A DNA stretch of 64,000 nt from contig CM097882.1 of NCBI GenBank assembly GCA_044892505.1, positions 14,632,001-14,696,000 on the forward strand. Direction: 5' to 3'. A program made the translations under genes and the position numbers. Under the pieces are notes generated by a model that saw nothing but the letters and a program-made list of their open reading frames with translations, searched no databases and was not told the DNA's origin. Source of the stretch: Schmidtea nova (taxonomy: Eukaryota). Shown here in pieces: positions 1,618 through 52,100 of the stretch (its first letter is position 1; each line of letters opens with the position of its first letter).

Positions 1618-3748
1618 TTAAACGATCCAATAATTTTTCAATAAATTCTTACTCTTGATTTACACGTTTTCTTATTTTCACCTTTGATCTTTCTATTTCA
1701 GAAATTTCCATTTATTATAAATACTAGATCAAAAATTTTTAAAAGTACAAATTTTCGGCAGCTTTTTCAAGTAAAAACGAGCTTTGTAGAAAATTTGTTT
1801 ATTCAAAAAAAATTAATATACTCTATAAAAATAAAATTTTCTGAAATTACACGGTTTTGACTAATGATGCAAAAATTAACTGTAACTCGAGCATTACTTG
1901 CATCACTTCTAATCCATTTATCAACAGATAGTTGAATAATTAATTCGATTTTCGGTATGTGAAGATAATTAAATTAACTAATTGATTAATGAAAATAAAC
2001 ATTTTAATTAAGGTAACTAGTTTTAATTTGATTAATAAATAAAATAAGTGTTAATTTGATTTTACTGTTTAATATATATGGGAATGAGCTTAGCTTTCGA
2101 GATTTTTTTATGATTTTAAGAAAGAATTATAGGTTTTTGTTATATATTACACGAATTTTGGATAACATAAAACATATCCCACATTTCACTACAGGAGGCA
2201 CATGGTTTTTAACACGAATTCGTTTTTTACAGAATTTTTTTATTAACAAATATACACAATTATTCCTTTTTGTTTTTACCGATTTTTCCTTAGAAATTGA
2301 CACAGTCAGAACTAAATTATAGATAACATTTAAATATATTATTTGGTTTACATACACAACATACTAATGCAATTTCGAGTTGCAAAATATCAGCAATGCA
2401 AATGATGTAAATAAACATTGTTTGTGGATGTTTATTGATGAAGCTTTTAAGCACAGTAATTGTATTTGCAATTTGCTATCGTGATTAATGCAATTGTTAG
2501 GCATTTTTCAGATATCTATATTTGCGATTGTTTAATTTATGTTTCTGATCTTTGGTGAAGTTGACAGTTGAATAATGGCATTCTATTCATTAATCACTGC
2601 TTGCATCCATTAATGTACTTCCGTCATCAATTGTAACTGGTTATAATGTGTAAATGTTTCGTATTCAGTTATCAAAATTAAAGTAGTAAATGAAAATGAT
2701 CTGTTTTTCCCAGTTGGATTGTTATCCTTTAATTATTGAGAATCTATACGTGTGTCAAATCATTGTACATGAACGAATAATGCATGATTTAGTCATGAAA
2801 TTCGGTAGAACGTGCTAGTGAATGGACATTTACAATCTCCCGTCTTTTAAAAATCTATTTAAGCTGTAGAAATATAATATTTACATGATAAATTTTACAA
2901 TCTTGTCCATTAACTTATAATTACAATTTCTTTAATTTCTTTTCTAAAATTTAAAATTTTCTAAACTTAAAACATTTGAATTGAAATATTAAAAATCAAC
3001 GACATTTTACATTTTTCCATGTCACAATTACGTTGGAGCAGAACGGTTAATATAATATGGTTGAAGTAATACAAGTGATTTGTAAAATGAAAACTTTAAA
3101 TGAATTTTCATTAAAAAAATATATTTTTATTCGTTTAATTCTGCTGACTCTAATATTAAAATCTGAGCACAATACTATTTACAAAATTTTTGTTTCAAGC
3201 AATTAAGATAAATTTCTTTCTAATAAGCTAAAGTTTTAATAAACTGTTTTAATAAATTTCTATCATTTCTCCATTATTAACTTTGGTGACAATAAGAAAT
3301 TAAAACATTGCAACTTGCCATTTATATATCCTATTTTATCGCATTTAATAAATAAATATATTTTTAATACAATGTTATTTGAAATTCAAACTTTATATAA
3401 TTTTTCTAATTTTTTACCAAGTATTTCTTTCAACCGTTATACTTTGTATATTAATAAATATTTAATTTTTGAAATAAATTTCAATTTCAATAAATATTCT
3501 TACCTGTATTAAAAATTTTTTATATCGAAAATTTTTTTACGTTTTTAGTGTTTACTGTAATTTTTAATATAATAAATCAACGATTGCTGATCTGATTGTA
3601 CTTTGTATGATTAACTTAAAGTTTATTACTATGCATTATGCATAATTGTTGGAAATAGTGGCTATTTTTCTGAATATTTGAATTATATTACTATATAGAT
3701 AAATAATTTATTAAGAGTCGAAATGAAATTGTATATGTAATCTTTTAG

Positions 3749-10546: not shown

Positions 10547-12024
10547 TCAGGATTGCTGTTGGCCAGCTGTCTGATTTGATTGAATTGCGGTGGATTGCCC
10601 AAAAATCGATGGAACAACGCTCTCAATCTAATAAAAACAATAATAGAAAACAATTCATAGGCGAGAAAACTAAACCGGTTTCCAAATCTGAATGATATTA
10701 TCATTGGCCGTGCTACCGATAACATTCCTCACATCGGGATGCCAACTGAAATCGGTAATTGCAGCGGAATGGCCGCCATGGACAAACTGCAGTTCCGGTG
10801 GATCTTCAACTGCAGCTGCGGCTTGCAACCTCTCACTGTCATGGACAACATCAATATCCCACAAACAAATCGTCCTCGACGCTGCACTGCAAGCCAATAC
10901 ATTCGATGCATGAGGTGACCAACGGATATTCCCCATTGATTCGTTGTTGTTTTGATTGGACAATGAGTGCAATTTCACCGAGAGATTCCTCAAGTCCCAC
11001 AACGCAACAGTTCCATCATCACTCGACGTAGCAAACACAAATTGAGAAAACGGTGATCCAGCAATCGATGTAACAGTTGATTTGTGAGCGATTATTGAAT
11101 GACTCGCTCGTGATCGATTGCGGCTGCGAATATCCCAAATTCCAATTGAACAGTCAGTGGAGGAGGAAAGGAAAACTGTCGGTATTGTTGGCCACCAAGA
11201 TACGTCGGTAATGGTTCCAGTGTGACCGTTGAATAATCGATTAACGTTCTGATAATTATTATCCGATGTTCCATTGCCTGCGGACAGTAAATCCCACATT
11301 GCGATGGATTTGCCATCTCCAGCTCCCAAAAGGCACCCGGTTTCAGTGAGATTCCATGAAAGAATACCATTTACAGTTGAAAATCCATTCAATTTAAACA
11401 ACGGCTTGGTGAATGTATCGGGAATCGTGGCGAATTCTTCGGCTTCCTCATCGGTAATTCCATACGATCGGTTTTCTGTGTCATAGATATTGATGGAATT
11501 GCTCGATGTTGTGGCAATTATTTGTGATTTCTGGGGCATATGTCGAGCTTTTGTTATAGCATTTTGATGGATTATTCGTTTCTGTAATTCGATCTTTCCC
11601 ATTCCCGATTTAAATGTTCCAAATGCTGAAAAAGGGAGAGAAAAAATACAATAATAAATTGTCCAAACTGTTTATGAATACTTACGAGTGTCAGTATCGA
11701 TATCATCTTCACTTGGTAAATATACATCAGCTAATAAAACATGATTTCTATCGGAATCAGTTGTTGAGCCAAGTAATAAACGAGATTTAACAACTGTTCC
11801 GTTTCTGATAGTGCTCGGCAGCCACTCGAATGTGAAACTAGGCCAGTGCAACGCATGTGTCATTACCATGTCGTATAAAAATGAGACACATTTTTTCCAG
11901 TTTTTGTAATCATCATTTAAAATTCTTTCCTCTGATTCATCTACATATTCTTTTGGGTTTGATATAATAAAAATATTGAAAAATAAATAAATATATATTT
12001 TTAAATATTACCTTTGCTCAACAT
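10547..12024 (-). CDS. Divergent RBBP4/RBBP7 (RbAp48/MSI1/HAT2)-like WD40 histone chaperone; predicted exons 12024-12012, 11949-11686, 11625-10676, 10627-10547
   Basis: Spliced N-terminus [49 protein letters not shown], WD repeats, and EDPPELQFVHGGHSAAITDFSWHP near the end. GT-AG introns of 62, 60 and 48 nt keep the frame. The last exon is less certain (alternative stop at 10670). Confidence 0.88.
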
Positions 12025-15652: not shown

Positions 15653-16398
15653 TCCAGGTGAATAGCCCAAACATCCATTATCACTTCATCTCAACTGGGG
15701 AACAGTGGCTTGGCCAAGGGCAAGGTGTTATACTAATGATATTTGATTTATAATAATGTAGTTTATCTGAATTTATAATTCTAATATATTCATAATTAAA
15801 AATTGATACCACATATAAACGTAAAGATGATTTCCTCCATTAATGTCTTTTCCATTATAAAAAATGATCTGCGCAAGAATATTTTACTCGTCGTTCGCCT
15901 TCACTCTCACAACAACTGTCATCTTATCCGAAAACGCAAGAAAATTGGAAGCTAATATTGAAAAGAGAATCGTTTGAAATAATGCTCAAAGCTGGTATAA
16001 TGATCACGAAATGAAACGAAAATTTTTTTTCCAGGTGAATAGCCCAAACATCCATTATCACTTCATCTCAACTGGGGAACAGTGGCTTGGCCAAGGGCAA
16101 GGTGTTATACTAATGATATTTGATTTATAATAATGTAGTTTATCTGAATTTATAATTCTAATATATTCATAATTAAAAATTGATACCACATATAAACGTA
16201 AAGATGATTTCCTCCATTAATGTCTTTTCCATTATAAAAAATGATTTGCGCAAGAATATTTTACTCGTCGTTCGCCTTCACTCTCACAACAACTGTCATC
16301 TTATCCGAAAACGCAAGAACATTGGAAGCTAATATTGAAAAGAGAATCGTTTGAAATAATGCTCAAAGCTGGTATAATGATCACGAAATGAAACGAAC
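15653..16398. repeat. Near-identical tandem direct duplication of about 370 bp (15653-16021 and 16030-16398)
   Basis: Both copies start TCCAGGTGAATAGCCC and end GAAATGAAACGAA, with only a few differences. Confidence 0.9.
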
Positions 16399-16836: not shown

Positions 16837-18095
16837 AAATTAGTATTAATTTTTAAAATAAAATATATATTTTAAATTCTATTATAGTCAAAAAATTTAA
16901 ATCGATTAAAATTTTTAAATTTAAATAAATTAATCTTAAAAGTATAATATTCTTTTATTTTTATACAAAAAAATATTTTTTTAAAGAATATATTATAAAT
17001 AATTTCATATTTATAAACAACAGAATGATTGAAAACGAAATCCACAATCCCCAATTGAAAATGCTCTAAAACTCGAGTACAGAAAAGACGGTCAGTCTTG
17101 TCCAAAGTATGTGGCAATACGCCCATGACATTTGAAAACTTAAACGAGTATAGAACACAAATCAAAAGAAGAAAATAAACATCATCAACAACCACATCAG
17201 TTAATTTACTTAAACCGAAAAAAATGAGGCAAACACATGGACTCAAAACTCTCACACTCACATATTCACAAACAACGATATGACTGAAAACAACGCTAAA
17301 TCCCATTAATTGACTCCGCTCTGAAACTCGAATACAGAGAAGACGGGCAGTCTTTTCCAATGTTTTGGGATTTCACCCATGACGTTTGAAAATATAAACG
17401 AGAACAGAGCAAAGAACAATACAGAAAACTTAGAATCACCAACAATCACATCAATTAATTCATAAACAATAGAATAAGAGAAGGAATCAGCACGAGTGTA
17501 AACCTCATCTGTATTGTTCTTTGCTCTGTTCTCGTTTATATTTTCAAACGTCATAGGTGAAATGCCACATACATTGGAAAAGACTGCCCGTCTTCTCTGT
17601 ATTCGAGTTTCAGAGTGGAGTCAATTAATGGGATTTAGCGTTGTTTTCAGTCATATCGTTGTTTGTGAATATGTGAGTGAGAGTTTTGAGTCCGTGTGTT
17701 TGCCTCATTTTTTTCGGTTTAAGTAAATTAACTGATGTGGTTGTTGATGATGTTTATTTTCTTCTTTTGATTTGTGTTCTATACTCGTTTAAGTTTTCAA
17801 ATGTCATGGGCGTAATGCCACATACTTTGGACAAGACTGACCGTCTTTTATGTACTCGAGTTTTAGAGCATTTTCAATTGGGGATTGTGGATTTCGCTTT
17901 CAATCATTCTGTTGTTTATAAATATGAAATTATTTATAATATATTCTTAAAAAAAATATTTTTTTGTATAAAAATAAAAGAATATTATACTTTTAAGATT
18001 AATTTATTTAAATTTAAAAATTTTAATCGATTTAAATTTTTTGACTATAATAGAATTTAAAATAAATAATTTATTTTAAAAATTAATACTAATTT
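16837..18095. repeat. Long inverted repeat: arms 16837-17425 and 17508-18095, 82-bp spacer; made of Penelope-like GIY-YIG and 3'-tail remnants
   Basis: Mirror ORFs 16872-17360(-) and 17677-18060(+) encode nearly the same peptide. Each arm has two degenerate GIY-YIG-like segments (FKFSNVMG...LDKTDRLLCTRVLEH; LEKTARLLCIRVSE). Confidence 0.85.
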
Positions 18096-18199: not shown

Positions 18200-19523
18200 T
18201 TGGATTGGCGTGTGTTGTTAATTATTTTAGTGNNNNNNNNNNNNNNNNNNNNNNNNNNNNNNNNNNNNNNNNNNNNNNNNNNNNNNNNNNNNNNNNNNNN
18301 NNNNNNNNNNNNNNNNNNNNNNNNNNNNNNNNNNNNNNNNNNNNNNNNNNNNNNNNNNNNNNNNNNNNNNNNNNNNNNNNNNNNNNNNNNNNNNNNNNNN
18401 NNNNNNNNNNNNNNNNNNNNNNNNNNNNNNNNNNNNNNNNNNNNNNNNNNNNNNNNNNNNNNNNNNNNNNNNNNNNNNNNNNNNNNNNNNNNNNNNNNNN
18501 NNNNNNNNNNNNNNNNNNNNNNNNNNNNNNNNNNTTTAATTATTTTGGCAATATGTTTGTTAACTATGTCGTTGTTTAAAAAAGGGTATGAAATTATATA
18601 GCATCTTGTTCATATAGCGGAGGCGGTTCGAATGACAACATTGATACTTGAAATTTTTAAAATTTTTAATTTTTGGTCCAAAATTAAATTTTTTCGACCA
18701 GGCAACTTAAAAATGGTACCACCGTGTGCGTCACTGAAATGCAGAGCGAACGATTCCACTTTTAACCTTGGTACTTTAAAGTATTTTTGTTTTTGTTTCA
18801 AAATTTTATTTTTTAATCGGACACCTTCAAAAATAGTATTATTGTGTGCGACACTGAAATGCCTTGCGAACGATACCAAATTTGACCTTGATACTTGTAC
18901 TTTTAAAATTAAAAAAAATTATTTAAATTTGAAATGAGTTATCGATGACGTCACTTAATTCAAATTTGAAATGAGTCATCAACGTGTCATAGAGTGAGTC
19001 ATCGATGAGTCGTAATGGTGAGTTATCAATGTGATGAGTCATCGATGAGCCATCGATTTAAAATTTTAAAAAAACTTCTCAAAAAATAGCAGAGTTAGTG
19101 GTGAGTCATTAAAATCAAAAAAATTTTCAAAATAATCAAAATTGAGAAAGTTTAAAAAAATTACTTATTTTTCGATGAGTCATAAAAATTTCGGACGAGT
19201 CATTCATCAGTATTCGATTATTTAAATAAAAAATTTTAAAAAAAAACAGAAAATTTTTCGAAAAAAAGTATGAGTCATCGAAGACTAAAAAAAGTTTTTT
19301 AAAAAAAATTTGTTAAAAAAACAGAATATTTTTCGAAAAAAAGTATGAGTCATCCATGACTCATCGATGCGTCATAAAAAATTTTGAAAAAAAAGTTTTA
19401 AAAAAAGAGAATATTTTTCGAAAAAAAGTATGAGTCATAAATTTCTTTTTACCCCGGGGTTCTTTGTTCGTTATTTTCACGCCCACGTATGTCTTTGTTC
19501 CCAGCTCTACACATTTACCTACT
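18200..19523. mobile_element. One terminus of a Maverick/Polinton-derived element (family related to 32625-37506)
   Basis: Ends ...ACACATTTACCTACT (reverse complement starts AGTAGG). It has a dense ATGAGTCATCGATGA array (18930-19440), a junction AAATTTGAAATGAGT(T/C)ATCGATGACGTCA shared with 37306-37335, and TTATTTTGGCAAT satellite-like sequence beside the N gap. Gypsy RT follows immediately. Confidence 0.75.
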
Positions 19524-25593: not shown

Positions 25594-26299
25594 CATTGTA
25601 AACAATTTCTGTAAATCAAAATTCATTTTGTGTTATTGTCTCAATTTTAATTATATTTATTGTATATAACGAATTATTTCAAAGTTTGAATGAATGGATC
25701 GACTGATATCGTGACTGTTTGAATAATGTTACAACGAGATTCGGTAAATAACGCAATGCTTGTTGAGCGATAGAGACGTTTTGCTTTGTTTACTTTTAAT
25801 TAAACCGCTTGATAATACCTTGGTACTGATCATGAGGAAAACCACCGTGACGTGATTTTCTTTCTTGCAATCGTCGTTTAAAATTTCCACGGTTTATTAT
25901 AAAGTTAATGTGGAATAAGGGACAAAAATGGGCGCGAAACCTTCTATCGGTAGCCCTTGAACTCAGGAGATGTTCGGTTAATAATAGTTTCGATTTTTTC
26001 ATCGCTCACTGTTCGCGAACATCCACCCATTTGTTGTATTACCAACATTACATTGTGACGGGCAACAAGATGGTTAAACTAATGTTTTGTATGTTGAGTT
26101 GTTGATGTGAGCCATAGCAACAGCAAGGTCATATTGACGGTCAACAACCCACCATCACTGTTACACAATTTACCAAATATCCGTTTCCACTGTCGGAGCG
26201 AAAATATCCATTTTCATCCAATTCTTGTGATACAAATCCACAATCATAAATATTCGTCATCATCTAATTCTTCCCCTTTAAATATCAATATAATAATTT

Positions 26300-27400
26300 A
26301 ATCTTTTCATATTCGTTCAACAACTCTTTTTCTTAATTTCCGAACCTTTGTGCCACAATTCTCTAGTATATATTCAGTTTTCTCATAATCTTCATAATCT
26401 AATGCTATTGTAAACGGGTTTAATTTGATTTCAATTTTTTTGAGTTCTTTTCCCAATCGTCGTAATATACATCTTAACTTTTCTCTATATCTTGATTATT
26501 CATACATATGACCTTATTGCATGGATAATATTTAATTTACTATTTCTATCAATTTCAATTTCTTCTATTAACTTCAATTGTCTGACAATTTCATTTTCAT
26601 CTCCTTTACTCAAAATCTCTTTTAATTCCCTACAAATTTTCTGTGACTTATCTTTTATTGTTTCATTGTTTCTACTAATTTACGCTATCTGAATTTTAAT
26701 TTTATTCTCAGGTTTATGACCACAATCTATTAAAATTTCATCATCATTTAAACTTCTATTTTTAAATTTTACTTCCGTTATCAATTTCTAGCAATTCTTC
26801 TCCACTCTACTTTTAAACTCTTACGCATTCTCCTATTTCACAACAAATACTCATTCACACCAATAACAAAAAAATCTAGCCGTTTTCTCTTGGAACAATT
26901 TCCAAAATATTTTCATTATATATTTGGTCTCAGTTTTATCTTTTGAATTTTCGCTATGATAATCAGCCCTTTTTTCAATTACACTTTTCAATTTTTGTCT
27001 ACTCATCGGCATTTGGCTCAATTTCTTTAACCATGTCATTATTTTAGATGCTTCTTTTACTTTTGATTCTATTAAAATTTTATGCTCGACATAATCATTT
27101 TTTTCAGCTTCTAAGTCACCATTTGCTACTTCCTTTATTATATCTAACTCTGACCGTTCTGATTGCTGTTCACACATCATATGATTATCAATTTCTTCAT
27201 TTAATTCAAATTTGCCCATTAATTGATCCAATCGTCAACCCGTTTGTTTAATATCTTTTTCAATTCTTTCATTACCATCGTCTAGTTGTACAAAAGCCAT
27301 GTTATCAAATTTTGATTTATAATTTTTAAATCTGATCTTCTTTAATATCGGTCTTTGAAATTTTTTATTATTCTTTGGGCATAATCTAGTCATGTGTCTT
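26300..27400 (-). pseudogene. Decayed intronless virus-like ORF(s), probably Polinton accessory genes
   Basis: Lys/Glu/Ile-rich reading frames with stops (ORF 26851-27231 ends in a CxxC: FFCYWCE). They are collinear and co-oriented with the adjacent ATPase. Confidence 0.4.
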
Positions 27401-27409
27401 TAACCTATG

Positions 27410-27996
27410 CATGAGTGAAATTGAATTTGCCCTTTGGAGATTTACTCTGTCTCTCTGTGGCAATTGTGACGTTGACGGAGATCTCGATCTTGCAAAACAA
27501 TTTCGAGAAATATGACCTTTCCTATCTTCAGATATTCTTGTCTTGCAAGAAAATATATAACCGTTGCAACTCTTGGGTTTTTAAAAATAACCAGATAATG
27601 TACATTTAAATTACGTTTTCGATGATTTCCACCTTGATGGAAAAGATATTGTATTATGAATATAACTGTACCTCCAGCATGTCTAGAAATCTTTGAAAAT
27701 AAATTATTAAATTCTTTTCTTTGTTGGCTTCTTGAAATAAATCATCAATTATGATGAAGTCTTTCTTTTTTCAAACTCTTTGTTCAATCTTTATCAAACC
27801 CTTTGATTATTTTCATTTTGACTATGCAAGATTCTGTCTGTGTCAAACCATTTTCAGTTTCAGAACCTTGATGCCAATATATTTGATTAAATTTTTCAAC
27901 AAATAAATTTGATTGTAACAATTTACATACAAAAAGCGTTTTACCACTACCACTAGGTCCAACAATTTGGTAAACAGCATCATTTTGCAACTCCAT
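27410..27996 (-). pseudogene. Polinton/Maverick DNA-packaging ATPase (A32/FtsK-HerA-like), frameshifted
   Basis: Walker A GPSGSGKT, Walker B FIIIDDL (second frame), then SRH...FIIQYLFHQG, LNVHY and FKNP...LARQ, the motif order typical of Polinton ATPases. Confidence 0.85.
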
Positions 27997-29614
27997 TTCA
28001 ATATAATAATTTGAAACTTTGTTTATACATTTAAATTTACTTGTTGAATACATTGATTTAAAAAATTAAATTTTTCAGACAAAAAATGCCAAAGAAAGAA
28101 CCGGGCACACTGCCCCCATAAGGTGATCCAACCAAAAACTGAGTAACCCCATAAAAAAACTATGATTTCTGCACAAAAATTAACATTTTGCACATTTTAG
28201 AATTTAAAAATCAATAGTTGCACTTTTAAATAATGTGCAGAACTTTTTAAACATACTGACACTTCAAAATAATAAAAAGTTATACTTAATTATTTGTTTG
28301 CACTTTTTTTGCACTTTAAATTCAATACGATTTTTACATTTGTTTTTAAACGAAACTTTGGAACGAGATTTCGATATATTGGTTTGACCAAAATGAAAAT
28401 ACTTTACAAATATAATGTGTCTCGTCATTGCCTACATCTTTTGTCTTGGATGTTTTCTCAAATCTATCTTAAAAGTCGTATATTTCTTTAAACGAAACAT
28501 TATTACACGATTTTGGAACATGAGGGTTGAGAAAAATAAAAGGTTTTTAAAGCTTAAATGTGCGTCTTGATATGATTTACAACTTTTGTCTTAGAAGTTT
28601 TCTCTTATCTTTATTATATTTCCTTCTGTGCTTATTTAAAAAAGATTTTAGGGGGTAGTGATAGGGGGTACTCTCAATAATAATTATAAAAATAAAAAAA
28701 AACATGTGCGTGATAACTTATGGTGAATCGGGGGCTCACAAAATTTCAAAGTGATTTTTTGACGACTTTCTCACCTCCTATTAAAGGATTTTCAACACAA
28801 AAAATTTTCAGTGCGATAAAATCTACCTAACTGCAATTAGAAAAATTAAAAAAGTTTCTTTGCACTTAGAAAAGAATTGAAAAGGACAATTTTTACAAAT
28901 TTTTCACTGTTTTCACTTTTTTGTGTTTTTGCACACTTGTTACAAAACATCCTTCAACACATAAAATGTGAAAAATCAAAAAATCAGTAATCTAAAATTT
29001 AAACAAAAAATTTATGGAGGGGGAGGGGGAGAGGGGCTATGTGCTCAATAACTCATGGTGAATCGGGTGGAGGGTCTCACACCCCCTATTCCTCTGAAAA
29101 TTTAATTTAGTAGTTGACTGCAAAAATAGAAGAATCATACTAAACAACTTCAACAACTCAGCCAAAAAAAACAAACAATTTAGCAATTAAATCAATTGTG
29201 ATATTAGGGTACGATGAAACAAAAACAGATAAACAAAACTTGAACAAACCTAATGAAATTATAAAAATCATACAAACTGTACCGAATATAACCAATAAAT
29301 TAACGGCAAATGGTGAAAGAAAATGCATAATGAACACTCAATAATTAACAACGGAAATCCAGTCCACGCAAAAGTCAAACGACTAGATAAAAGAAAACTC
29401 GAAATAACTAAGAAAATATTCGACGATGTGTTAAAAAACAAAATCGTCACACACTCAAATTCAAATTAGTCATTATCCCTCATGGTTAAAGAAAATGAAA
29501 ATGATGAATTGCGAGTTTGCGGAGACTACATAGAATTAAATAGCACCACAACAGCCAATAAATACACAATCCCAATTATAAATGACATTATAAACAGGTT
29601 TAACAAACCAAAAC

Positions 29615-31527
29615 GATTCCCTATCATTTGGTCGAACATCAGGTGGTCGAAGTTTACTTGGTTGAAATTCGTTTCGTCGCTGTTCATTTGGTCGAGAATT
29701 CATATAGTCGAAATTTATATATTCAAAATTCATATAGTCGAATATGTGTGGTTTAAGTGACGATAATTTAGTAGATATTAGTTTAGGATTTAAAACTTTA
29801 ACTATTTAATTTAAATTAAATAGTTTCCAAAAATTAGTTTCCAATAATTTATCCCATACAAAATGTCGAAATTAAACTTTGTCATTAGTAGTAAAGGAAA
29901 AGTATGTATTTGAAGGCTATTTATACACAAAAGATAAAGAAGTAAACGGAAAAAAATATTGGCAATGTGAAATAAGAAGCTGCAACTCAAGAATGCATAG
30001 CACGGGCGATGTTATTGTAAGAACACCAAGTGATCTTCACCAGCATTCTCCATCTTGTGATCGTGTTTCTGCAGCAATTGTGGCTGGACAAGTACATCGA
30101 AACGCATTAGATTGTGAGAGTACAACCAAAAACATTGTACAACAAGCGATGTCTCAGGTACCTGTCGTTGTTGCACCTGCGCTGGCTTCAACTTCACCAT
30201 TATCACAAATTGTAAGAAGAAAACGAAAAGCAGCACTATCTTATGAAGACACAGAAACAGAGCTTCATGAAAGAATTATTGTTCCAAGGAAGCTTCAACG
30301 CACATGCGACGATATTGAATTCTTGCGATTTTCTTCAGAATAAATGATTTTATTTGCGTTTCCTCTTGGAATAGATTTGAACAGAATAGAACGGAATTAG
30401 TTTGCAGATGGAACATTCTATGTAGCTCCAAAAGAATATACTCAGCTCTGCACCATTCTTGTTCTACTTGGAAATTATGAAACTATCGCGTGCGTTTACG
30501 CTCTTTTAAAGAATAAATCAAGGGAACCGTATGCTGTCATGTTTCAGTTTTTGCGGGATTTGAATCCGGATAAACCCTTAAAACCCGCAAGCATCACCGT
30601 AGACTTTGAACAAGCACCTATGACAGCATTTAAAGAAACATTCCTAGACATCGAGATACACGGATGTTTCTTCCATCTGTGTCAAAATATTTGGAGACGA
30701 ATTCAAGAATCTGGTCTTCAGATCTTGTATGTTTCAGAGGCAGAATTTGCATTGAAGACTCGATGTCTAGCAGCAATCGCATTTTTACCAACGGAAGATA
30801 TCATTCGAGGATTCGAACTTTTGACACATGACGAAGATTATCCGGATGAATTAGACCAAATAGTCGATTATTTCGAATCAAATTACATCGGTAACATCGG
30901 CCAACGTTCCACAAGAAGACGACCGAATTTTCCCCATTCTATGTGGTCACAGTATGAACGAGTTAAAAATAGCCTTCCACGAACGACCAATTCACTAGAG
31001 GGGTGGCATAACGCACTGAAAGGTGTCATCTAAAAAGCACACCCGTCAATGGCAGCATTCGTAACTAAGCTACGTCTAGAAGAGTAAACTGTAGCACGCA
31101 AAATTGAAAGAGACATTGCTGGTCATCCTAAGAAATAAGACGAAGAAATACGAGGCCGTCAACGCTAGAATAAAGCTATTGGTGGATGGATATAATTCGA
31201 ACAATATTATGCAGTTTCTGAGAAGCATTGCTCATAACATCGCGTATTGAATGAATTACTTTTGTACTTTTGTACTGTTTTTACTCTTATGTATTTTAAA
31301 TACAAAATTTTTATTACTTTTTTATCATATATTTGTTTTATTTTATGAATAATAAATTTCGACAAAGTGATTTTCGACTTGTTTGTGTTTTGACCAATTG
31401 ATCTTACACGAAATGAAATTCGACCAAATGAACTTTCGACCAAAAGAATTCGGCGAAATGAACTTCGGCGAAATGACGTTCGACGAACTGATCGATTCCC
31501 AATCATTTGGTCGAAGATCATTTGGTC
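29615..31527 (+). mobile_element. MULE (Mutator-like) element with decayed FLYWCH-MULE transposase (about 29863-31246)
   Basis: 9-bp TSD AACCAAAAC / AAACAAAAC; subterminal TTTGGTCGAA / TTCGACCAAA repeats. Peptide FEGYLY...YWQC..RSC...H.H, FADGTF, VDFEQA, HGCFFHLCQ, RTTNSLEGWHN. Confidence 0.9.
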
Positions 31528-33082
31528 AAACAAAACTACTCAGAAAAATTGACTTAAAAAATGCCTATAATCAAATTTGTGTCCGAACAGAAAACATAAA
31601 GAAAACAGCAATCATCACACCTATAGTCCTTTTCGAATAAAGCAGAATCCAATTTGATTAAAAAACACTGCGGCAAATTTTCAACACTTCATGGATCAAA
31701 TACTACAAATTCAACAAAATACAGTTGCATATTTAGAAGACATTCTTATAGCGTCAGCAACCAATGAAGAACACATTCAAAACATAAAAAGCGTATTCGA
31801 AATACTTAACAAACATGAGTTAAAAATTAACATAAAAAATGCGAATTTTTAAAGACAGAAATAAAATATTTGGGACATACACTAAACTAAACGACAACAA
31901 AGCCCTTAGAAGACAAAATTAAAGCCAATTAAAACTACCCTTTACCCAAAACAACAAAAGAGTTAAGACGTTTCCTCGGAATTATCAACTTCTACCACAA
32001 ATACATATCAAAATGTAGTGAAATGTTAGCTCCTTTGAATGAATTGAACAAAATAAAGAGAAACATTAAAATAAATTAGAACGAGGAACTAATAACGGCT
32101 TTCAAAAAAGCAGAAGAAAACCTGAAAAACGCAAGTATTCTAAGTTGTCCTAACCAGAAATTACCGTTCATAGTCAACACAGACTGTTCAGGATCAGCAA
32201 TGGGTGGAACAATTTTTCAAGAAGAAAACAATGGGAAAAAAACACATAGCTTTCTTTTCAAAGAAATTAAAAACACACCAAATGAGATACTCCACATTTG
32301 ATAGAGAGTTATTAGCGTTACATGATACGATCAGACACTTCCAATATCTACTTGAAGTAAAGGAATTCGAAGTGTCCACTGATCACAAACCATAATTAAA
32401 CGCAATGAACAAGAAAAACCCTTCACCAAGACAAATACGACAATTAAATTATATTTCACAATTTAATTGTAAAATAAACTATATAGCAGGATCAGCTAAT
32501 ATAAGTGCAAACACACTATCAATAATAGAGTTTCCAAAGATGAACTCATTAAAACTGGAAGAAATAGACGGTATCTGGTACGACACAACAAATGACAACA
32601 ATAAAAGAATCATCGTACCACCAAAGTAAACAGAAGTGTGCACCATGAGTCATCGCTAAACAAAGGAAATGACGTCATCGGTACCCCCGCCCCGCCCCTG
32701 ATGACTCATTTTTTCTTTGTCATGACTCATCGATGACTCATCACATGACACATCGATGACTCATCACATGACGTCATCGATGACTCATTTCAAATTTTAA
32801 ATTTGAATTTCCAAAGGTCAAATAAAGTCAAACCTTCAAACAAGGGTATCATTCGAAAGGTCTTTTAAAGGTCTATACAATGGTCATACCTTCGAAGGTG
32901 TATGGTGGGTGCTCAACCTTCAAAGGGTGCAAAACCTTCAAACTTTTTCAAACCTTATAATATATATATATATATATCATTCGAAAGGTATTTGAGTGGT
33001 AAGTATGTTGGCCATACCCTCAAAGGTTTATGGTGGGTCTTTAACCTTCAAAGCGTGCAAAACCTTCAACCTTTTTCAAACC

Positions 33083-33153
<71 letters not shown>

Positions 33154-33376
33154 TTCGAAAGGTATTTGAGAGGTAAGTATGTTGGTCATATCCTCGAAGG
33201 TGCGTGGTGGGTGCTCAACCTTCGAAGGGTACAAAACCTTCAAACTTTTTCAAATCTTGTGTGTAATATATCATTCGAAAGGTATTTGAGAGGTAAGTAA
33301 AATGGTCATACCCTCGAAGGTTTATGGAGGGTCCTTAACCTTCAAGGGGTCAAAAACATTCAACCTTTTTCAAACC

Positions 33377-33435
<59 letters not shown>

Positions 33436-33777
33436 TTCGAAAGGTATTTGAGAAGTAGGTATGTTGGTCATACCCTCAAAGGTGTATGGTGGGTCCTGAA
33501 CCTTCAAGGGGTCAAAAACCTTCAAAATTTTCAAACATTATAATATATATATCAAACAAAAGGTAATTGAGATGTGCACACAATGGTCATACCTTCGAAG
33601 GTCTATGGTGGGTGCTCAACCTTCAAGGGGTCAAAAACCTTCAAATTTTTTCAAATCTTATAATATATATATCAAACAAAAGGTAATTGAGATGTGCACA
33701 CAATGGTCATACCTTCGAAGGTCTATGGTGGGTGCTCAACCTTCGAAGGGTGCAAAACCTTCAAACTTTTTCAAACC

Positions 33778-33848
<71 letters not shown>

Positions 33849-34089
33849 TTCAAAAGGTATTTGAGAGGTAAGTAAAATAGTCATAACCTCGAAGGTTTAT
33901 GGAGGGTCCTTAACCTTCAAGGGGTCAAAAACCTTCAACCTTTTTCAAACCTTATAATATATATATATATATATCATTCGAAAGGTATTTGAGAGGTAGG
34001 TAAGATGGTCATACCCTCGAAGGTGTGTGGTGGGTGCTAAACCTTCAAGGGGTCAAAAACCTTCAAATTTTCTCACACAAAGATTTCTC

Positions 34090-34236
34090 ACATGTTCAAT
34101 ATGTAATATCAATAGAGTTGGCATTTTATATTTACCTTGTGGACATGTCATTATTTGTTCAAAATGTTTAAAAAATATTGATAAGTGTGAATCTTGTGGT
34201 ATTAATATTGATGAATATCATGTGATATACATATAA
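34090..34236 (+). pseudogene. C-terminal IAP/MDM2-type C3HC4 RING finger remnant inside the Maverick
   Basis: CSIC-x11-CGH-VII-CSKC-x6-CESC followed by a 12-residue tail and stop. It is fused directly to the last subterminal repeat unit. Confidence 0.85.
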
Positions 34237-34329
34237 TGTCGTACAAAATATATGTATTTTCATTTAATTTATTTTTATCATTGGCTAAGGGAATGAACTT
34301 TGTGATTAATTATTAGTCTATTTTTTTTG

Positions 34330-36330
34330 TCTTTGTTAACTTGGCTTGCAACTGCCATGTCTTTGTTAATCTGACTTGCTAACAATACATGTCTTTGTTA
34401 ACTTGCATCTGTATTGCAATGTCTTTGTTAACTTGCATCTGTATTGCAATGTTTTTGTTAAAATTGCACATGAATTGTAGTGTCAAAATAGGTAGGAAAA
34501 TAAATATATATTACGTTATGGTAGTGTAATTATTTTATTTTGACATCTTGAAGGTTTGAAAATATATACACACACACATCTCAAATATCTTTCGCATGAT
34601 ATTTATATAGTTTTAAAAAATTTTGAACACTTGAATATTTTTTATTAACTTGCGTGTATGTCTTTGTTAACTTGTATCCACATTGCAATATCTTTGTTAA
34701 CTTGCATATGTATTGTTAAGGTGTTTTGGCATTNNNNNNNNNNNNNNNNNNNNNNNNNNNNNNNNNNNNNNNNNNNNNNNNNNNNNNNNNNNNNNNNNNN
34801 NNNNNNNNNNNNNNNNNNNNNNNNNNNNNNNNNNNNNNNNNNNNNNNNNNNNNNNNNNNNNNNNNNNNNNNNNNNNNNNNNNNNNNNNNNNNNNNNNNNN
34901 NNNNNNNNNNNNNNNNNNNNNNNNNNNNNNNNNNNNNNNNNNNNNNNNNNNNNNNNNNNGTTAATCAGGCTTGCAATGTCTTTATTGACTTACATCTACA
35001 TTGCAATGTCTTTGTTAACTTGCATATGTATTGCAATGTCTTTGTTTCGTTGCACATGGATTGCAATGTGTTTATTAAGGAATTTGGCAATGAAATGTCT
35101 TTGTTAAGAAATTTGGCAATGAAATGTCTTTGTTAAAGAATTTGGCATTGAATTGTCTTTGTTAAGGAATTTGGCAATGAAATGTCTTTGTTTAGTTATT
35201 TTGGCATTGAAATGTCTTTGTTAAGTTATTTTGGCAATGATATGTTTTTATTAAGGAATTTGGCAATGAAATGTCTTTGTTAAGGAATTTGACAATGAAA
35301 TGTCTTTGTTTAGGTGTTTTGGCAATTAAATGTCTTTCTTTAATTATTTTAGCATCAAAATGTCTTTATTATGGTATTTTGGTAAATGAAGTTGAATTGA
35401 AGTTGAATGAAGTTGAATTTTAATTAATGTTCGAATAATAAGCTTTGGCAGATAAAAACCATCACAAAAGATGTTCTGATACTATATGTCCTGCTAGTAA
35501 ATGTTCTGTTCGTGTCTCTGTTTAGTTATTTTGACATTGAAATGTCTTTGTTACGTAATTTAAAATGTCATTGTTAAGAATTTTGGCAATGAATTGTCTT
35601 TGTTAAGGAATTTGGCAATGAATATTCTTTGTTTAGTTATTTTGGCAATGAAATGTCTTTTTTTAGTTATTTTGGCATTGAAATGTCTTTGTTAAGTTAT
35701 TTTGGCAATGATATGTCTTTGTTAAGTTATTTTGGCAATGATATGTTTTTATTAAGGAATTTGGCAATGAATTGTCTTTGTTAAGGAATTTGGCAATGAA
35801 TTGTCTTTGTTAAGAAATTTGGCATTGAATTGTCTTTGTTAAGGAATTTGGCAATGAATATTCTTTGTTTAGTTATTTTGGAAATGAAATGTCTTTGTTT
35901 AGTTATTTTGGCATTGAAATGTCTTTGTTAAGTTATTTTGGCAATGATATGTTTTTATTAAGGAATTTGGCAATGAAATGTCTTTGTTAAGGAATTTGGC
36001 AAAGAATTGTCTTTGTTAAGAAATTTGGCAATGAATATTCTTTGTTTAGTTATTTTGGAAATGAAATGTCTTTGTTTAGTTATTTTGGAAATGAAATGTC
36101 TTTGTTTAGTTATTTTGGCATTGAAATGTCTTTGTTAAGTTATTTTGGCAATGATATGTTTTTATTAAGGAATTTGGCAATGAAATGTCTTTGTTAAGAA
36201 ATTTGGCAATGAAATGTCTTTGTTTGGCTTCTTAGTATCGAAATGTCTTTGTGTAATTATTTTACCAATTAAATGTCTTTGCTGATATTGCACATGGATT
36301 GCAATGTCTTTGTTAATATTGCACATGGAT
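34330..36330. repeat. 29/30-bp minisatellite array inside the Maverick
   Basis: Units GTTAAGGAATTTGGCAATGAAATGTCTTT (29) and GTTTAGTTATTTTGGCATTGAAATGTCTTT (30), with a GTTAACTTGCATCTGTATTGCAATGTCTTT variant at both edges. N gap at 34734-34959. Confidence 0.95.
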
Positions 36331-38022
36331 TGCAATGTTTCTTGATGACTCATATTTGTGTTAAAAAAATTTGTGTTAAAAAAAAATTGAACACATACAC
36401 ACATGAATATGACCATCATACTCAACTTTCAATTACCTTTTGTTTGATACATATAGTAAATAGTTTTGAACCTTGGACCCTTCGAGGGTCGACCACCTAC
36501 CTTCAAGGGTATGTCCATCAAACTCATTTATCAATTACCTTTTGTTTGATACATATATTACATAGTTTTAAAAATTTTGAACCTTGGACCCTTCGAGGGT
36601 TGACCATCATACTCAACTCTCAATAACCTTTTGTTTGATATATAACTTGTAATGTTTAAAAATCTTTAAAGGTTTTTGACCCCTTGAAGGTTTAGCACCC
36701 ACCATAGACCTTCGAAGGTATGACCATTGTGTGCACATCTCAATTACCTTTTGTTTGATATATATATATATTATAATGTTTGAAAAAGGTTGAAGGTTTT
36801 TGACCCCTTGAAGGTTAAGGACCCTCCATAAACCTTCGAGGGTATGACCATTTTACTAACCTCTCAAATACCTTTCGAATGATATATTACACACAAGATT
36901 TGAAAAAGTTTGAAGATTTTGCACCCTTCGAAGGTTGAGCACCCACCACACACCTTCGAGGATATGACCAACATACTTACCTCTCAAATACCTTTCGAAT
37001 GATATATATATATATATATATTATAAGGTTTGAAAAAGGTTGAAGGTTTTGCACGCTTTGAAGGTTAAAGACCCACCATAAACCTTTGAGGGTATGGCCA
37101 ACATACTTACCTCTCAAATACCTTTCGAATGATATATATATATTATAAAGTTTGAAAAAGTTTGAAGGTTTTGCACCCTTTGAAGGTTGAGCACCCACCA
37201 TACACCTTCGAAGGTATGACCATTGTATAGACCTTTAAAAGACCTTTCGAATGATACCCTTGTTTGAAGGTTTGACTTTATTTGACCTTTGGAAATTCAA
37301 AAATAAAATTTGAAATGAGTCATCGATGACGTCATGTGATGAGTCATGTGTTGAGTCATGTGATGAGTCATGTGATGAGTCATGTGATGAGTCATCGATG
37401 AGTCATAACAAAGAAAAAAATGAGTCATCGGGGGGCGGGGGCGGGGGTACCGATGACGTCATTTCCTTTGTTTAGCGATGACTCATGGTGCACACTTCTG
37501 TCTACTCACCAAAGTTCTGTAAATATTACCTACAAAATACCACAATGCCTATCACCCAGGAAACAGAGCCACATACGAACTTTTGCATACAAAAGTCTTT
37601 TGGCCTTATTTTAGAAGCGACGTAAAAACGTTCGTAAAAATGTCAAAAGAACAAAATAATAAAAAACAATTTAAAACAGTATTTGTAAAATTTCCAAGTG
37701 CGGAAACGTTCAAAACAATACATTTTGACATCGTCGATCCTCTACCCCAAACAACAAGCACAAATACTTGCTAACAATAATTGATCGTGAAACAAATTGG
37801 TTTGAAGCCATATACATAAACGAAATATCTGCAGCAAAGATTTTCAAAAAACTAGAACTAAATTGGTTCGCACGGTATGGTTGCCCAAAAACACATATCG
37901 CCGATCATGGTAGACAATTCGAATCCGAACTTTTCAAAGAGCTTTGTAACAAGTACAATATTACAAAAATTAGAACAACTGCTTATAATCCACAATCAAA
38001 CGAAAAAGTGGAAAGATTGCAC

Positions 38023-38641
38023 CAGTGGCGTACCTAGGGTAAATAGCGCCTATAGCAAACACCAATCTTGCGCCCCTACCCGACGATAGGTTACTTACGT
38101 TTTTTTTCTAAAAAACTACTTTAGAATTGGGTAAAAAAAGCACACAAGTTAAATCTATTAACTTTTTATTACAAATTTATCTTTCTTGCTTTAGCTGACG
38201 CAAATTGTTTAATTATATTATCAAAGTCAATTTCTTGGGTCATTTCTCGTTCTATGCTAAGTAAAGCAAGATCACATAATCGACTTTGGCACATCAAGGC
38301 TCTCAAATATGTAAGTATAAATTTTCATTTGCTAAATGATCTTTCGCAACTGGCAATAGAAACCGCGATTGTCAGCAATATTTGCAATGCTATACACATA
38401 TTGGGAAAAACGTTTTCATCTCCATACTGAACTATAAAATTAAGTAATTGTTCGGGGCTTGATAAACAAAAAACGAATGCGTGCTTTTTCCTACGCAGTT
38501 TTTTAATACACATATTTATATCTATAAAAATATTTTTTTAATTTTCATTTGCGTATTTATACGTTAGGCGCTTTTTCGCGCCCCCTTCAGTTGGCGCCTA
38601 TGGCACGTGCCATGCCTTGCCATATCCTAGTTACGCCTCTG
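38023..38641 (-). mobile_element. Internally deleted hAT element
   Basis: TIRs CAGTGGCGTACCTAGG / CCTAGTTACGCCTCTG, exact 8-bp TSD GATTGCAC. Minus-strand dimerization-domain remnant FPNMCIALQILLTIAVSIASCERSFSK. Confidence 0.92.
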
Positions 38642-47394: not shown

Positions 47395-47867
47395 TTGAAG
47401 TGTGCAGATCCAAATTTGTGTGTATTGACAAATTTGAAAATAAAGATTATTGTGTTGGGTTTTCTTCATTGTTATTAAAGAAAGAACACAGGAGTCAAAT
47501 ATCAACCGACTATTTGTTAATAAGCCAATAGATTTTAAAAATGATAAGTTATAATAATTGAAAGGTAAATTCCATTGTTTTATAATAAATTATTATTTAT
47601 TTTAGATTTATCAAATTCTCACCAGGAATCAGCCAAAATCATACAAGTGGTAATTTTATACCATGTTGTGTATTGTTTTTATTAAATTGATGTGTTTATT
47701 AAAATTAAATACAAGTTTCGGATCAGATAAAAAAATGCCCATTTATAGATCAGGTAAAAAAAATGCCCAAAAATTTTTATCATATATAGTGACGATATTT
47801 AGATTAATATTTGTTTAAATATTACAGTTTTAAATAGAATATAATTTTGGAAATAACGTCTTATATT

Positions 47868-49130
47868 ATGACTAATAATGGAAATGTTACTGGCGACCAC
47901 GCCGAAATCGCAGCTATTACAAGATCACAACAAAGGCAGAAAATTGTCGAATCTTTGCCAAAAAATATTCAAGAATCGATTTACCCAGTGATAAATAAGT
48001 TTTTTGGAGGAAAAGAAGAAAATGCAAAGGACTGGCTTGAATCTATTGAAGAATTTGTGACGATAAATTCGCTCAATTTAGGAGCAGCATTCGATTTATT
48101 ATTACACGGAGATGCAAAAGAATTATGGATGGCCTTTAAGGAGACACTTAAGACTCCGGCTTCAGATCAAGAGGTAAAAGGTTGGTTTATTTTAAAATAT
48201 GTAAAATCCAAAAGTTTTTTACAAAATATCGAAGACATGAGTCTGATAAAGCAGAGGTCGGACGAAAGGTTTGAAAATTTTATAATCAGAGTGAGGAAAT
48301 TAGTCCGTGAAGTTCTTTCCGCAAATCAAACGGAAGACATGATTGTCAAGGATATTGTTACAAAACGTATGTATTCAGAAAAAGTTAAGGATGCAATTGC
48401 AATGAACCCAGAAGTATCTCTCACAGAAATAGAGAAAATGAATGTAAACTTTGAAAATAATTTACATACAGAAGACACCAGAGAGATATTTGCACTGGCA
48501 GATAATAGGAAACAATCGTCATATGCATCTGTAACAAGAAATAAAATCCCAGTAAGGCAGAATGTTCACCCAGTGATTAGACCATCAGTTCCAGAGACTA
48601 ATCTGTATGTCAGTGATAAAAGAAATTACGACAAAAATGGCAATAGACCACATTTCACTGAAAGAAGGCGAAATTCAGAAAGTTTATTGGTTAATGAGAG
48701 ACCCAATAGGCCTATGGTTTCTATGAAACATATTGCAAGACGAGTTTACAACAAAGCGAAAGGGTTTCCGGAACCAGAATTGCGACCCTTACAACCCGGT
48801 CAATGTTATTGTTGTGGCGAATCAGGTCATATTCGGAACAATTGTCCTTTAAGCAAATGTTGTTTAATATGTGGTAAAAATGATCATTTTTTTAATAATT
48901 GCCCTCTATTAAGAAGTAATAATACAAGAAAAATCCACTGTATTCAAGAAGAGAATGATTTAGGAAATCTGACTTATTCGTATGAAAACCTTGAGAATAA
49001 TGGCACGTCAGAATCTGAAGTAAATGAAATAGGATCGATTACAGGAGGTCATAGAAGATATAACAAAGAACGTCCTTTAAACGAGATACGCTCTATGGCA
49101 AACATTTCGTCTGTGGAGTCGTTGAATTAA
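47868..49130 (+). CDS. Gypsy Gag with two CCHC zinc knuckles
   Basis: Open frame from ATG 47868; capsid-like WLESIEEF and ERFENFIIRV segments; CYCCGESGHIRNNC and CLICGKNDHFFNNC. Confidence 0.9.
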   Translation: MTNNGNVTGDHAEIAAITRSQQRQKIVESLPKNIQESIYPVINKFFGGKEENAKDWLESIEEFVTINSLNLGAAFDLLLHGDAKELWMAFKETLKTPASDQEVKGWFILKYVKSKSFLQNIEDMSLIKQRSDERFENFIIRVRKLVREVLSANQTEDMIVKDIVTKRMYSEKVKDAIAMNPEVSLTEIEKMNVNFENNLHTEDTREIFALADNRKQSSYASVTRNKIPVRQNVHPVIRPSVPETNLYVSDKRNYDKNGNRPHFTERRRNSESLLVNERPNRPMVSMKHIARRVYNKAKGFPEPELRPLQPGQCYCCGESGHIRNNCPLSKCCLICGKNDHFFNNCPLLRSNNTRKIHCIQEENDLGNLTYSYENLENNGTSESEVNEIGSITGGHRRYNKERPLNEIRSMANISSVESLN

Positions 49131-52100
49131 ATGTGAAGAACACAGAAAACCGAAATGTTATGATGTTCAAGAAGACGGATGGAAGGTGGTGGAGTTTTGT
49201 TCAATGATGTGGAAAAGTGATTGAGATGTTGTGGGATACAGGTGCATCGGTTACGGTAATGTCAGAGGCCATATGGAGAAAGTGTGGCAGTCCAGTTTTA
49301 AAACCGTTGGATATTGCGCTTAGAGGTGCGTTTGGAAATAAACCGATATCATGCTTAGGTGATTTTATGACTTCGATTGTTTGGAATGAATTGTGTCAGA
49401 AAGTAAAGGTAATTGTGGTTAGAGATATAAGTCCAAGTTTTGTGGGTGGAATGAATTTGATTTTAGCTTTTAAAATAAAACTGGTGCCAGATACATCAAT
49501 TGCATTAATCGATTCAGATACGGTTGGTGTTAGCTACAGTGATAAAGAACGATGTCAAAAAGCGCTGGATGTTTTTGGACCAAATCCAAATCCAAAACTG
49601 GTGGAGTTAGTAACCATGTATAGTTCGATCTTCATGGCATCGGATTTTGATTTAGGTTGTACTAGTTTAGTTACTCATACTATAAAAACGTCGGGAAATC
49701 CAATAATTCAAAATCACAGGCGCATCGCAATGCAAATGGAATCAAAAGTGGACGATATGATTATGAAATTATTAAAAATGGGCATTATCAGGAAATGCCA
49801 AAGCCCATGGAACTCACCTACGGTCGTGGTAGGTAAAAAAGATGGATCAATCAGAATGTGTCAAGACTTTAGGAAAGTCAATGAAGTTACTGAAAAATTC
49901 AGTTTTCCAATGGCGGACTCCCAAACAATATTCGATTCTTTGTCCGGATCTTCAGTTTTTTCATCTCTAGACTTGGGGCAGGCATATTATCAGGTATATG
50001 TTGATGAGGCGTCTCAGTTAAAAACAGCGTTTTCTACAAAGAAGGGACAGTTTTGCTACAATCGAATGCCATTTGGATTATCCACAGCTCCAGCAACTTT
50101 CCAAAGACTTATGCACATATTATTTGATGATATTTTGTATAACGGTGTTGCAGCATATTTAGATGATGTTCTGATATATGGAAAAAACTATCGAAGAACA
50201 CAATAGAAATTTGGAGGAAGTTTTCAAGCGAATTAAATTAGCGGGGTTAAGGATCAATCCTAAGAAATGTAGTTTTTATAAAAGTGAATTGATATTCTTG
50301 GGGCATAAAATTTCAGCAGAAGGTATATCCACGAATAACAAGATGATAAAAAGAATTATTGAGGTTGAAATACCGAAATGCAGTAAACAACTACGTTCAT
50401 TTTTGGGATTAGCAAATTATTATAGCAAATTTGTTCCAAATTTTGCTGAAATAGCCAAACCGTTATATGAAGCTACAAAGGGACATGAAAAAGATATTAA
50501 ATGGAATGACGAGTGTGAGGAAAGTTTCCAAAAACTTAAGCATGCACTATCGAGTGCACCAATATTGGCGTTTCCAAATAAGGTCGATTACTTTATTTTG
50601 GATACTGATGCGTGTTTTAGCGGAATTGGTGCTGTTCTAAGCCAAGTTCAAAATGGTTGTGAAAAAGTCATAGCATATGGTTCAAGACTTTTAAGTGCTC
50701 ATGAGAAAGGATACTGTGTGACTAGAAAAGAATTATTAGCAATATACGAGTACGTCTTATATTTTCGGCATTATTTATATGGAAAAAAATTTTGATATAC
50801 GTACGGATCACAAGGCTTTAAAGTTCTTAAAGTCAACTTCGAAACCAATAAGTCCACAATTCCAAACATGGTTGAGTGAGTTGTCTGGTTATGATTTTGA
50901 TTTAAAATATAGGAAAGGTGAAAATCATAGTAACGCTGATGGACTATCGAGGATATTACTAAGTTATTGCTCACAATGTCAAACCGAACACGAAGAAGGA
51001 AAACTTGAGAAGAGCCGAATAAGATTTTTGAACGTGATTACTTCAAGTAATTTAAATATGCAGGTATATATTGAGAATCAGGAAACAGATAATTTGCTGT
51101 CTACAATAAAGAAATATGTACTAAACCCGAGTCCCGAGATACCTCACTTGATTCGGGATTCACCTTATTCCAAAAGACTGGATCAGATATTTGTAAAAGA
51201 CAATCTGTTATTAATAGTAAATGATGATAAGCAGAAGATAATAATTCCGCAGAAAATGGTGTCACAAGTCGTACAGCATATGCACAAAGAACTCTGTCAT
51301 TTAGGAGTTAAGAAAACAACAAATTATATGAACGATTATTTTTTTTGGATACACATGGTAGCCGATATACGAGATATTATAAAAAAATGTGATGTATGCA
51401 TGAGAAGGAAAGTATTGACAAGTAAGACAGCTGAGTATTTAATTCCTAGGGTAATAATGAGTTCGATGGAACAAATCGTAATCGATATTGCTCATATGAA
51501 AGAAACCAGAAACCGTAACCGTTATTTGGTAGTAATAATTGATCAGTTCAGCAAGATGGTTAGTTTAACGCCTACTCAGAACCAAGATGAAAAGACAATA
51601 TATCGGGTACTTTTACACAATTGGATATACAAATTCGGTAAACCAGCTTACATTGTTTCGGATAGAGGTAAAGTTTTCGAAGGAAGTCAAATCAAAGGGT
51701 TAATGGATAATTTTAACATCGAATGGATATTTACCTCACCATATGATCATAAGTCTAATGGTTTAGCAGAACGGGTAATACGAACGGTTCGTGATATGAT
51801 CGTGACATTTCTGAATGATGGGCAAACTGGAGGGTGTTGGGATGACATCATGCCAAAAATTGAATATTCCCTGAACTCAACAACACAGAGTTCTACGGGA
51901 TTTTCGCCAATGGAAATACTATTTGGAAGAAAGGTTAATATACATGGAAAGAATTCATTTATAGATCTTAATCGAGAACAAGTATTATTGACAGCACAGA
52001 ATAATATTAAGGTAGCGGCAGATAAAATGAGATCAAGAGATGCAGATAAGAAAATTCATCGGCATTTTGAGGTTGGTCAGAGAGTTCTAGTAAAAATGGA

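Follow-up and report, generated by a model that had tools for sequence, protein, structure and literature searches.

Host-factor sites in the ends of viruses and transposons are a familiar idea, and AP-1/CRE-bearing LTRs and small TIR elements form a general class. Two viral systems offer analogies to the locus described here, and the preliminary description of this locus had invoked both of them. Adenovirus ITRs carry Sp1 and ATF sites (PMC5717082), and high activity is reported for the end region of Ad5 in reporter screens (PMC12338741). Baculovirus hrs carry CRE/TRE sites (PMC13513840). Both analogies hold. For Mavericks, Barreat & Katzourakis 2021 (PMC8097293) give (AGT)2, (AG)3 and (AC)3A as end motifs, with 6-bp duplications and AGT-type ends in vertebrate Mavericks; the passages on the ends cover end motifs and not transcription-factor arrays, and the paper states that Maverick particles are so far unobserved. 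No description of AP-1/CRE arrays in Maverick ends was found in searches of the open-access literature, and nothing on them was found in bioRxiv 10.1101/2025.02.07.637071. Since host-factor sites at viral and transposon ends were already known, the surprise of meeting them here is limited.

The window, that is, the whole stretch of 64,000 nucleotides that was analyzed, contains a gene-less element with long TIRs, E1, which is inserted between the RNase H and integrase regions of a decayed Gypsy pol. The coordinates of E1 and of the other features are collected in Table 1. The TIRs extend over ~1.45 kb on the left and ~1.1 kb on the right, and their outer segments are 98-99% complementary. The ends look Maverick-like, and the tips carry AP-1 and CRE sites, which are two spacings of one half-site, with optimal flanks. 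The right end motif matches (AGT)2 in 5 of 6 letters and the left one in 4 of 6; the end of a second element, E2, matches in 5 of 6 as well. Since 6-bp duplications and AGT-type ends are known for vertebrate Mavericks, a non-autonomous derivative is the best reading of E1, and its Maverick origin is probable, an assignment that rests on the ends and not on genes. No pPolB, integrase, ATPase, protease or capsid gene lies within 32625-37506 (226 of these bases are N), and E1 is accordingly not classed as an autonomous Maverick. Pfam gave no match in the two internal frames of E1 that were scanned, the other listed frames being repeat read-throughs, and Rfam gave no match in E1. The sites had been assigned to a Maverick TIR from the start, and they do lie at its TIR tips, the element being of Maverick type by its AGTA ends and 6-bp duplication. 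An autonomous, gene-bearing partner of E1 was not found in the window or in the viral-contig searches. Inside E1 lie 31 of the 33 window copies of the words GTCTTTGTT/AACAAAGAC, with one further copy at the E2 tip; the GTCTTTGTT of the central 30-bp unit is similar to a Sox/TCF HMG-box site.

Table 1. Features of the window discussed in the text, in order of position
Feature	Position	Strand	Remarks
Host gene, STT3B-type, with long Ser/Thr-rich insertion	3727-5804		few, short introns; best PDB match STT3B, E=4e-215
Host WD40 gene	10670-12007		few, short introns
E2, one end of a diverged homologous element	18535-19523	-	end AGTAGG; other end outside window
E3, remnant of a gene-bearing Maverick	27445-29095	-	A32-type packaging ATPase with stops (27445-28065); non-coding end AGAGGA (29095)
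Decayed Gypsy pol split by E1	31834-38019	+	RT/RNase H left, integrase right
Left target-site duplication CACCAA	32619-32624	+	
E1, gene-less, long TIRs, probable non-autonomous Maverick/Polinton derivative	32625-37506	.	4882 bp including 226-N gap 34734-34959
Left end motif AGTAAA	32625-32630	+	
Left bZIP-site array	32645-32788	.	6 AP-1, 2 CRE, 1 decayed unit
GC run CCCCCGCCCCGCCCC	32684-32698	+	two overlapping CCGCCC hexamers; E1-family-specific, absent from E2
E1-E2 common block	32768-32905	+	CRE, AP-1, TTTCAAATTT, AAGGTCAAA, start of ~120-bp repeat unit
Inner part of left TIR	32847-34078	+	~120-bp units split by (AT)n tracts
Non-coding centre	34327-36338	+	29-30-bp minisatellite
Inner part of right TIR	36590-37267	-	~120-bp units
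Right bZIP-site array	37315-37487	.	9 AP-1, 2 CRE; G run at 37430-37447
Right end motif AGTAGA	37501-37506	-	
Right target-site duplication copy	37507-37512	+	

E1 belongs to an abundant family. In one run, from the best-matching organism, a stretch of 581 bp is covered by 13,494 contigs, of which 2156 match at no less than 99%; much of this is 120-bp repeat. The summed contig depth is ~1e6 at the tip versus 38-88 for the 8 X2 contigs listed, and is not a copy number. This pile of contigs shows that the family is very large and has young members, without itself being a copy number. Contigs of runs X5 (soil) and X6 are limited to short pieces or to the side with the 120-bp repeat, and both runs were excluded as evidence of range. 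The 7 runs listed include no RNA run with the sequence, which counts neither for nor against expression. Other insertions were seen in the same neighbourhood. A small hAT-like insertion (38023-38641; 8-bp duplication GATTGCAC, CAG ends) lies in the same Gypsy integrase region as E1, and a Mutator-like element with FLYWCH and MULE domains and 15-bp subterminal repeats (29600-31530) is nested in the Gypsy host of E1. Elsewhere in the window, a nearly intact Gypsy gag-pol with four overlapping frames occupies 47838-52248, and near-identical tandem or gap-flanking duplications at 15653-16397 and at 57248-57547 and 60830-61129 (377 bp at 99%; 300 bp at 93%) may be assembly artefacts. The host is an animal, and the first exon of its WD40 gene resembles the RBBP4/7 histone-binding region.

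The preliminary description had reported about six AP-1 sites, two CREs and a GC box crowded into the left tip of E1. Our recount within 32625-32800 gave 6 AP-1 sites, 2 CREs and the GC run, so the dense array is real. TGA(C/G)TCA occurs at 32646, 32702, 32723, 32734, 32757 and 32781, and TGACGTCA (CRE) at 32670 and 32769. All 8 left sites have the extended form ATGA..TCAT, with optimal flanks, in a span of 144 bp that starts 21 bases in from the E1 end, and position 32745 holds a decayed unit, ATGACACAT. Sites 1-4 mirror each other imperfectly about the GC run, whose CCGCCC hexamers we assume to be Sp/KLF-type, while sites 4-8 form an 11-12-bp tandem array. The mirrored copy reported for the right end is present there as an array, although the mirroring is inexact: with its more numerous tandem units and a slightly longer G/C run, the right array is not an exact copy of the left. 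Unit number changes by slippage, with 6 versus 9 AP-1 sites at the two ends.

The surroundings are AT-rich, as had been stated (the GC content of the window is 30.9%), and the comparison with shuffled sequence that had been suggested was carried out. None of 2000 dinucleotide shuffles of 32625-32800 matched the observed counts; the shuffle means were 0.08 for AP-1 and 0.017 for CRE, and no shuffle gave 6 AP-1 sites, 2 CREs or 2 GC-box hexamers. Over the whole window, 100 shuffles gave expectations of 0.79 for ATGASTCAT (23 observed), 0.47 for TGACGTCA (5 observed) and 0.01 for CCCCGCCCC (4 observed). The window minus E1 and the E2 end (56,529 bases) contains a single AP-1 site and no CRE, and control palindromes of the same letters occur 0-8 times each in the whole window versus 26 for AP-1. 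The shuffle enrichment exaggerates the independence of the sites, because it ignores tandem and mirror copies. The tandem array at 32721-32788 holds 5 of the 8 left sites, and site pairs 1-2 and 3-4 look mirrored about the GC run, spacers included (shuffles that preserve the motifs reached the mirror score in 6 and in 1 of 300 cases); the spacer mirrored at the E1 tip is AACAAAG. Given the tandem array and the mirror pairing, the independent site origins number ~2-4 and not 8. An independent origin of three isolated near-tip sites (P ~7e-9) was dropped when the mirror symmetry was found. Overall, the array is a real, non-random, conserved feature.

The array is also kept in E2, the diverged relative of E1. 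The E2 end has 9 perfect AP-1 sites and 1 perfect CRE within 18930-19438, along with several one-mismatch sites and decayed units; the 10 perfect sites fall in 594 bp (18930-19523) and are scattered among A/T-rich spacers over ~500 bp. On the inner side of the bZIP sites, E1 and E2 align with a score of 66 versus 50 for the best of 1000 shuffles, and no alignment was found between their tips. Because the inward parts align and the tips do not, the two ends are homologous and the sites have outlived their spacers. The E2 family has kept and re-amplified the same sites among unrelated spacers. Within the 75-bp repeat of E2, 9 of 9 motif columns are invariant versus 40 of 66 others (Fisher p=0.023), and the invariant stretch runs 16 bases past the motif. 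The conservation across families, a check on which had been suggested, extends to the AP-1/CRE sites, which are kept in E2 amid new spacers, but not to the GC box. No GC box is present in the E2 end, and the contigs of the related organism do not cover it, so it does not qualify as part of a conserved core. Among the variants listed for the X2 contigs are a CRE turned into AP-1 by one base omitted at 32773 (33 contigs, possibly misplaced neighbouring units), spacer changes at 32699, 32708 and 32766-67, and a duplication of the CRE-AP-1-TTTCAAATTT block. In organism C, two contigs join the tip straight to the CRE-AP-1-TTTCAAATTT block, skipping the GC run. Next after E2 comes a Gypsy RT that begins mid-domain, its first half lying outside the window. 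Beside an assembly gap, a non-coding inverted repeat (16837-18095; arm segments of 427 bp and 113 bp at 98%) is possibly the E2 centre or a separate foldback element.

The window also holds one remnant, E3, of a gene-bearing Maverick, the only such remnant in it. Its ATPase matches Pox_A32 with E=0.0011, under the curated cut-off, and its Atlas feature score is 0.96 against a cluster in which Pox_A32 makes up 25% of the members. The E3 end has no perfect site, only the one-mismatch ATGAGTTAT, which lies inside a 13-bp word common with the E1 tips. The likeness of the E3 and E1 ends is confined to this word and a C-rich run (2 of 2000 shuffles equalled the alignment score), and all 4 window matches of the word are at the E1 tips or the E3 end, the pattern having been picked post hoc. 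The decayed Maverick remnant, with more broken frames, can be followed over 26100-29095 on the minus strand, where it abuts a Gypsy protease fragment.

Beyond the window, the site pair was found at 68 distinct metagenome loci versus a single locus in prokaryote genomes totalling 596 Gb (~4 expected with uniform base use); many of the 68 come from few samples, so they are not independent, and the count has no matched control pattern. Further sites lie within 300 bp at 50 of the 68 metagenome loci, and at least 3 such sites at 27. A Pfam scan of 101 of the 114 long frames, from which the 13 belonging to prokaryote loci or to duplicate or overlapping ones were dropped and which left out loci with no 110-aa frame, identified a Maverick gene in 1 metagenome locus only. 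This locus, L022, is a Maverick with pPolB (E=5e-47) and PC4, and it is unrelated to E1. None of its 3 AP-1 sites and 3 CREs falls within an ORF, and the distance from the pair to the probable spliced start of the gene downstream is ~120 bp. The end region of L022 (4385-4868) is crowded with AP-1, CRE and further repeated words that we presume to be YY1-like and ETS-like, and its PC4 gene has an apparent short spliced first exon. Among the other loci, L051 contains at 630-860 a small TIR element with CACAGTG ends and 9 AP-1 sites, in whose flank a T-run/GAAAT/site motif is much like the E1-E2 common block, and L031 contains at 1010-1325 a Copia LTR with ~20 AP-1 sites in 30-bp repeats. Both a Copia LTR and a small TIR element thus carry the same kind of array, and AP-1 arrays are not Maverick-specific. 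Three gene-dense virus-like contigs (L032, L035 and L067), one of which encodes a histone-fold protein, have paired AP-1 sites between ORFs only, with 19 of 19 sites outside ORFs of at least 150 aa. Among viral contigs, none of the 13 pPolB loci examined (of 57 from a polymerase alignment) carries an array, an end being visible in 2 of the 13. In the same contigs 15 loci matched the 16-letter pattern, all of them lacking an array, 1 locus matched the longer pattern and 0 the inner-repeat pattern, and single-sequence searches with the broken ATPase of E3 and with the polymerase of L022 yielded no relatives.

We favor, with some reserve, the interpretation that the array serves host bZIP proteins as a landing pad, one that came down from an autonomous parent and grew by slippage. 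It is fairly likely that host AP-1/ATF dimers bind the tips. The proteins concerned would be host Jun/Fos/ATF orthologues. In the autonomous parent the bound end would act as promoter/enhancer for the outermost genes, a role suggested by L022, where the site pair precedes a gene. For gene-less copies any benefit would arise in cis, and because E1 is gene-less, the only selectable benefit of its sites is in cis. Bound factors might hold the end nucleosome-free just inside the replication origin and the integrase site, and site-rich copies might be mobilised oftener by the polymerase and integrase of a helper, perhaps chiefly in stressed or dividing cells. The E1 array can only aid end access or replication, or ride along. 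The preliminary description had pictured a stress- or mitogen-inducible switch that couples host signalling to the transcription or replication of the element. Coupling to the element's own transcription is ruled out for the E1 copy, which has no genes; for the parent element the interpretation is plausible, while its GC-box and host-enhancer parts are weak.

The coexistence of AP-1 and CRE spacings requires change exactly at the palindrome centre. Together with the persistence and re-expansion of the E2 sites in different spacers and the lack of enrichment of same-letter control palindromes, it argues against the array being a neutral passenger, in which inversion and slippage made many copies of 1-2 ancestral palindromic sites, with no selection for binding in a gene-less family. 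We consider this explanation unlikely, although the whole of E1 is built of tandem repeats (120-bp, 30-bp, AT), the unit number is unequal between its ends, and decayed units are found in both E1 and E2. The comparison of left and right E1 ends over the first 166 bp, which is uninformative, also leaves room for a passenger: 1 of 6 substitutions falls in the cores (65 bp), indistinguishable from random.

Distinctly unlikely, in our view, is a structural or element-protein signal, with the palindromes bound by a helper protein or folded as a displaced-strand hairpin and the likeness to AP-1 secondary. The tip does fold well (-34.7 kcal/mol, z -6.5; motif-preserving shuffles were as good in 3 of 300 and 7 of 300 cases) and its spacers are mirrored about the GC run, but the pairing includes a mismatch between the 7-bp AP-1 and the 8-bp CRE, and E2 keeps the sites yet spreads them across 500 bp of A/T tracts. 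Transposase-bound subterminal repeats are common, which would suit a protein of the element; the presence of the same words in an unrelated LTR and in virus-like promoter regions points instead to a host factor.

Were E1 a foldback or Mutator-type element, with a 9-bp duplication and no Maverick ancestry, the array would be an enhancer on a cut-and-paste transposon; this origin we regard as very unlikely. The direct repeat flanking the single insertion can be read as 9 bp (CACCAAAGT) as well as 6 bp, since the target went on with AGT. The 9-bp reading leaves ACT unpaired at the right end, whereas with 6 bp the two ends are symmetric. AGTAG is found independently at the end of E2, and the 13-bp word of the E1 tip, a pattern chosen post hoc, recurs only at the ATPase-bearing E3 end; these points outweigh, in our judgement, the lack of a Maverick gene in E1, an end motif with only 5 of the 6 letters of (AGT)2, and the modular, repeat-built inverted repeats that are typical of foldback elements. 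Finally, closely packed perfect AP-1 sites make strong enhancers in the cells of animals, and the CpG observed/expected ratio of 0.97 in the window shows no depletion, so methylation silencing may be weak, but co-option of the E1 copy as an enhancer of neighbouring host genes is most improbable, as E1 lies amid other insertions within a decayed Gypsy and already has a decayed unit and the variant base 32699. The proposal that the sites act on neighbouring host genes finds no support at this locus, because the nearest host genes (the two seen) are >20 kb off, behind nested transposon debris.

For the reactivation of integrated Mavericks, the perfect, conserved, length-variable AP-1/CRE array at the ends suggests a candidate trigger (JNK/MAPK or cAMP signalling). 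Should the family be as abundant as the contigs suggest, it would also constitute a large reservoir of AP-1 sites in the host. A bolder proposal, which we think quite unlikely, is that E1 represents a helper-dependent Maverick satellite that reached thousands of copies through its amplified end AP-1/ATF sites, much as defective viral genomes amplify origins or enhancers. Were this true, the host genome would be seeded with thousands of AP-1 clusters, able to titrate or rewire the host AP-1 response, and mobilisation would be tied to wound/stress signalling. Each Maverick family might then tune to one host signalling pathway through its homotypic end array.

Compared with known systems, E1 is like the (AGT)2//(ACT)2 Mavericks (PMC8097293) in its long TIRs, its perfect 6-bp duplication and a right end that begins AGTAG. 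It is unlike animal Mavericks in having no pPolB, integrase, ATPase or capsid genes, in its size of ~4.9 kb and in a sixth end base that departs from (AGT)2. The tandem AP-1 sites of L031 and L051 also belong to mobile elements that spread them through the genome, but these elements have other mobilisation chemistry and their sequence kinship with E1 is limited to the motif. The adenovirus ITR, of protein-primed lineage, likewise has ATF and Sp1 sites for host factors on the inner side of its origin (PMC5717082). E1 differs from it in being integrated and gene-less and in carrying a homotypic, length-variable array of 8-11 sites, mostly AP-1; in adenovirus the sites named as enhancing replication are NFI and NFIII/Oct-1 beside the core origin. 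Baculovirus hrs resemble E1 in their clusters of CRE/TRE sites in repeats, and their enhancer activity is reported to correlate with motif number (PMC13513840). The hrs are unlike E1 in being internal and in consisting of 30-bp palindromes with an EcoRI site that act with viral IE1; no hr-type 30-bp imperfect palindrome with an EcoRI core was found in 32625-32800, where the repeat units are 11-12 bp. By analogy with these viruses, we propose that the E1 end may function like an adenovirus ITR or a baculovirus hr, while being a member of neither group.
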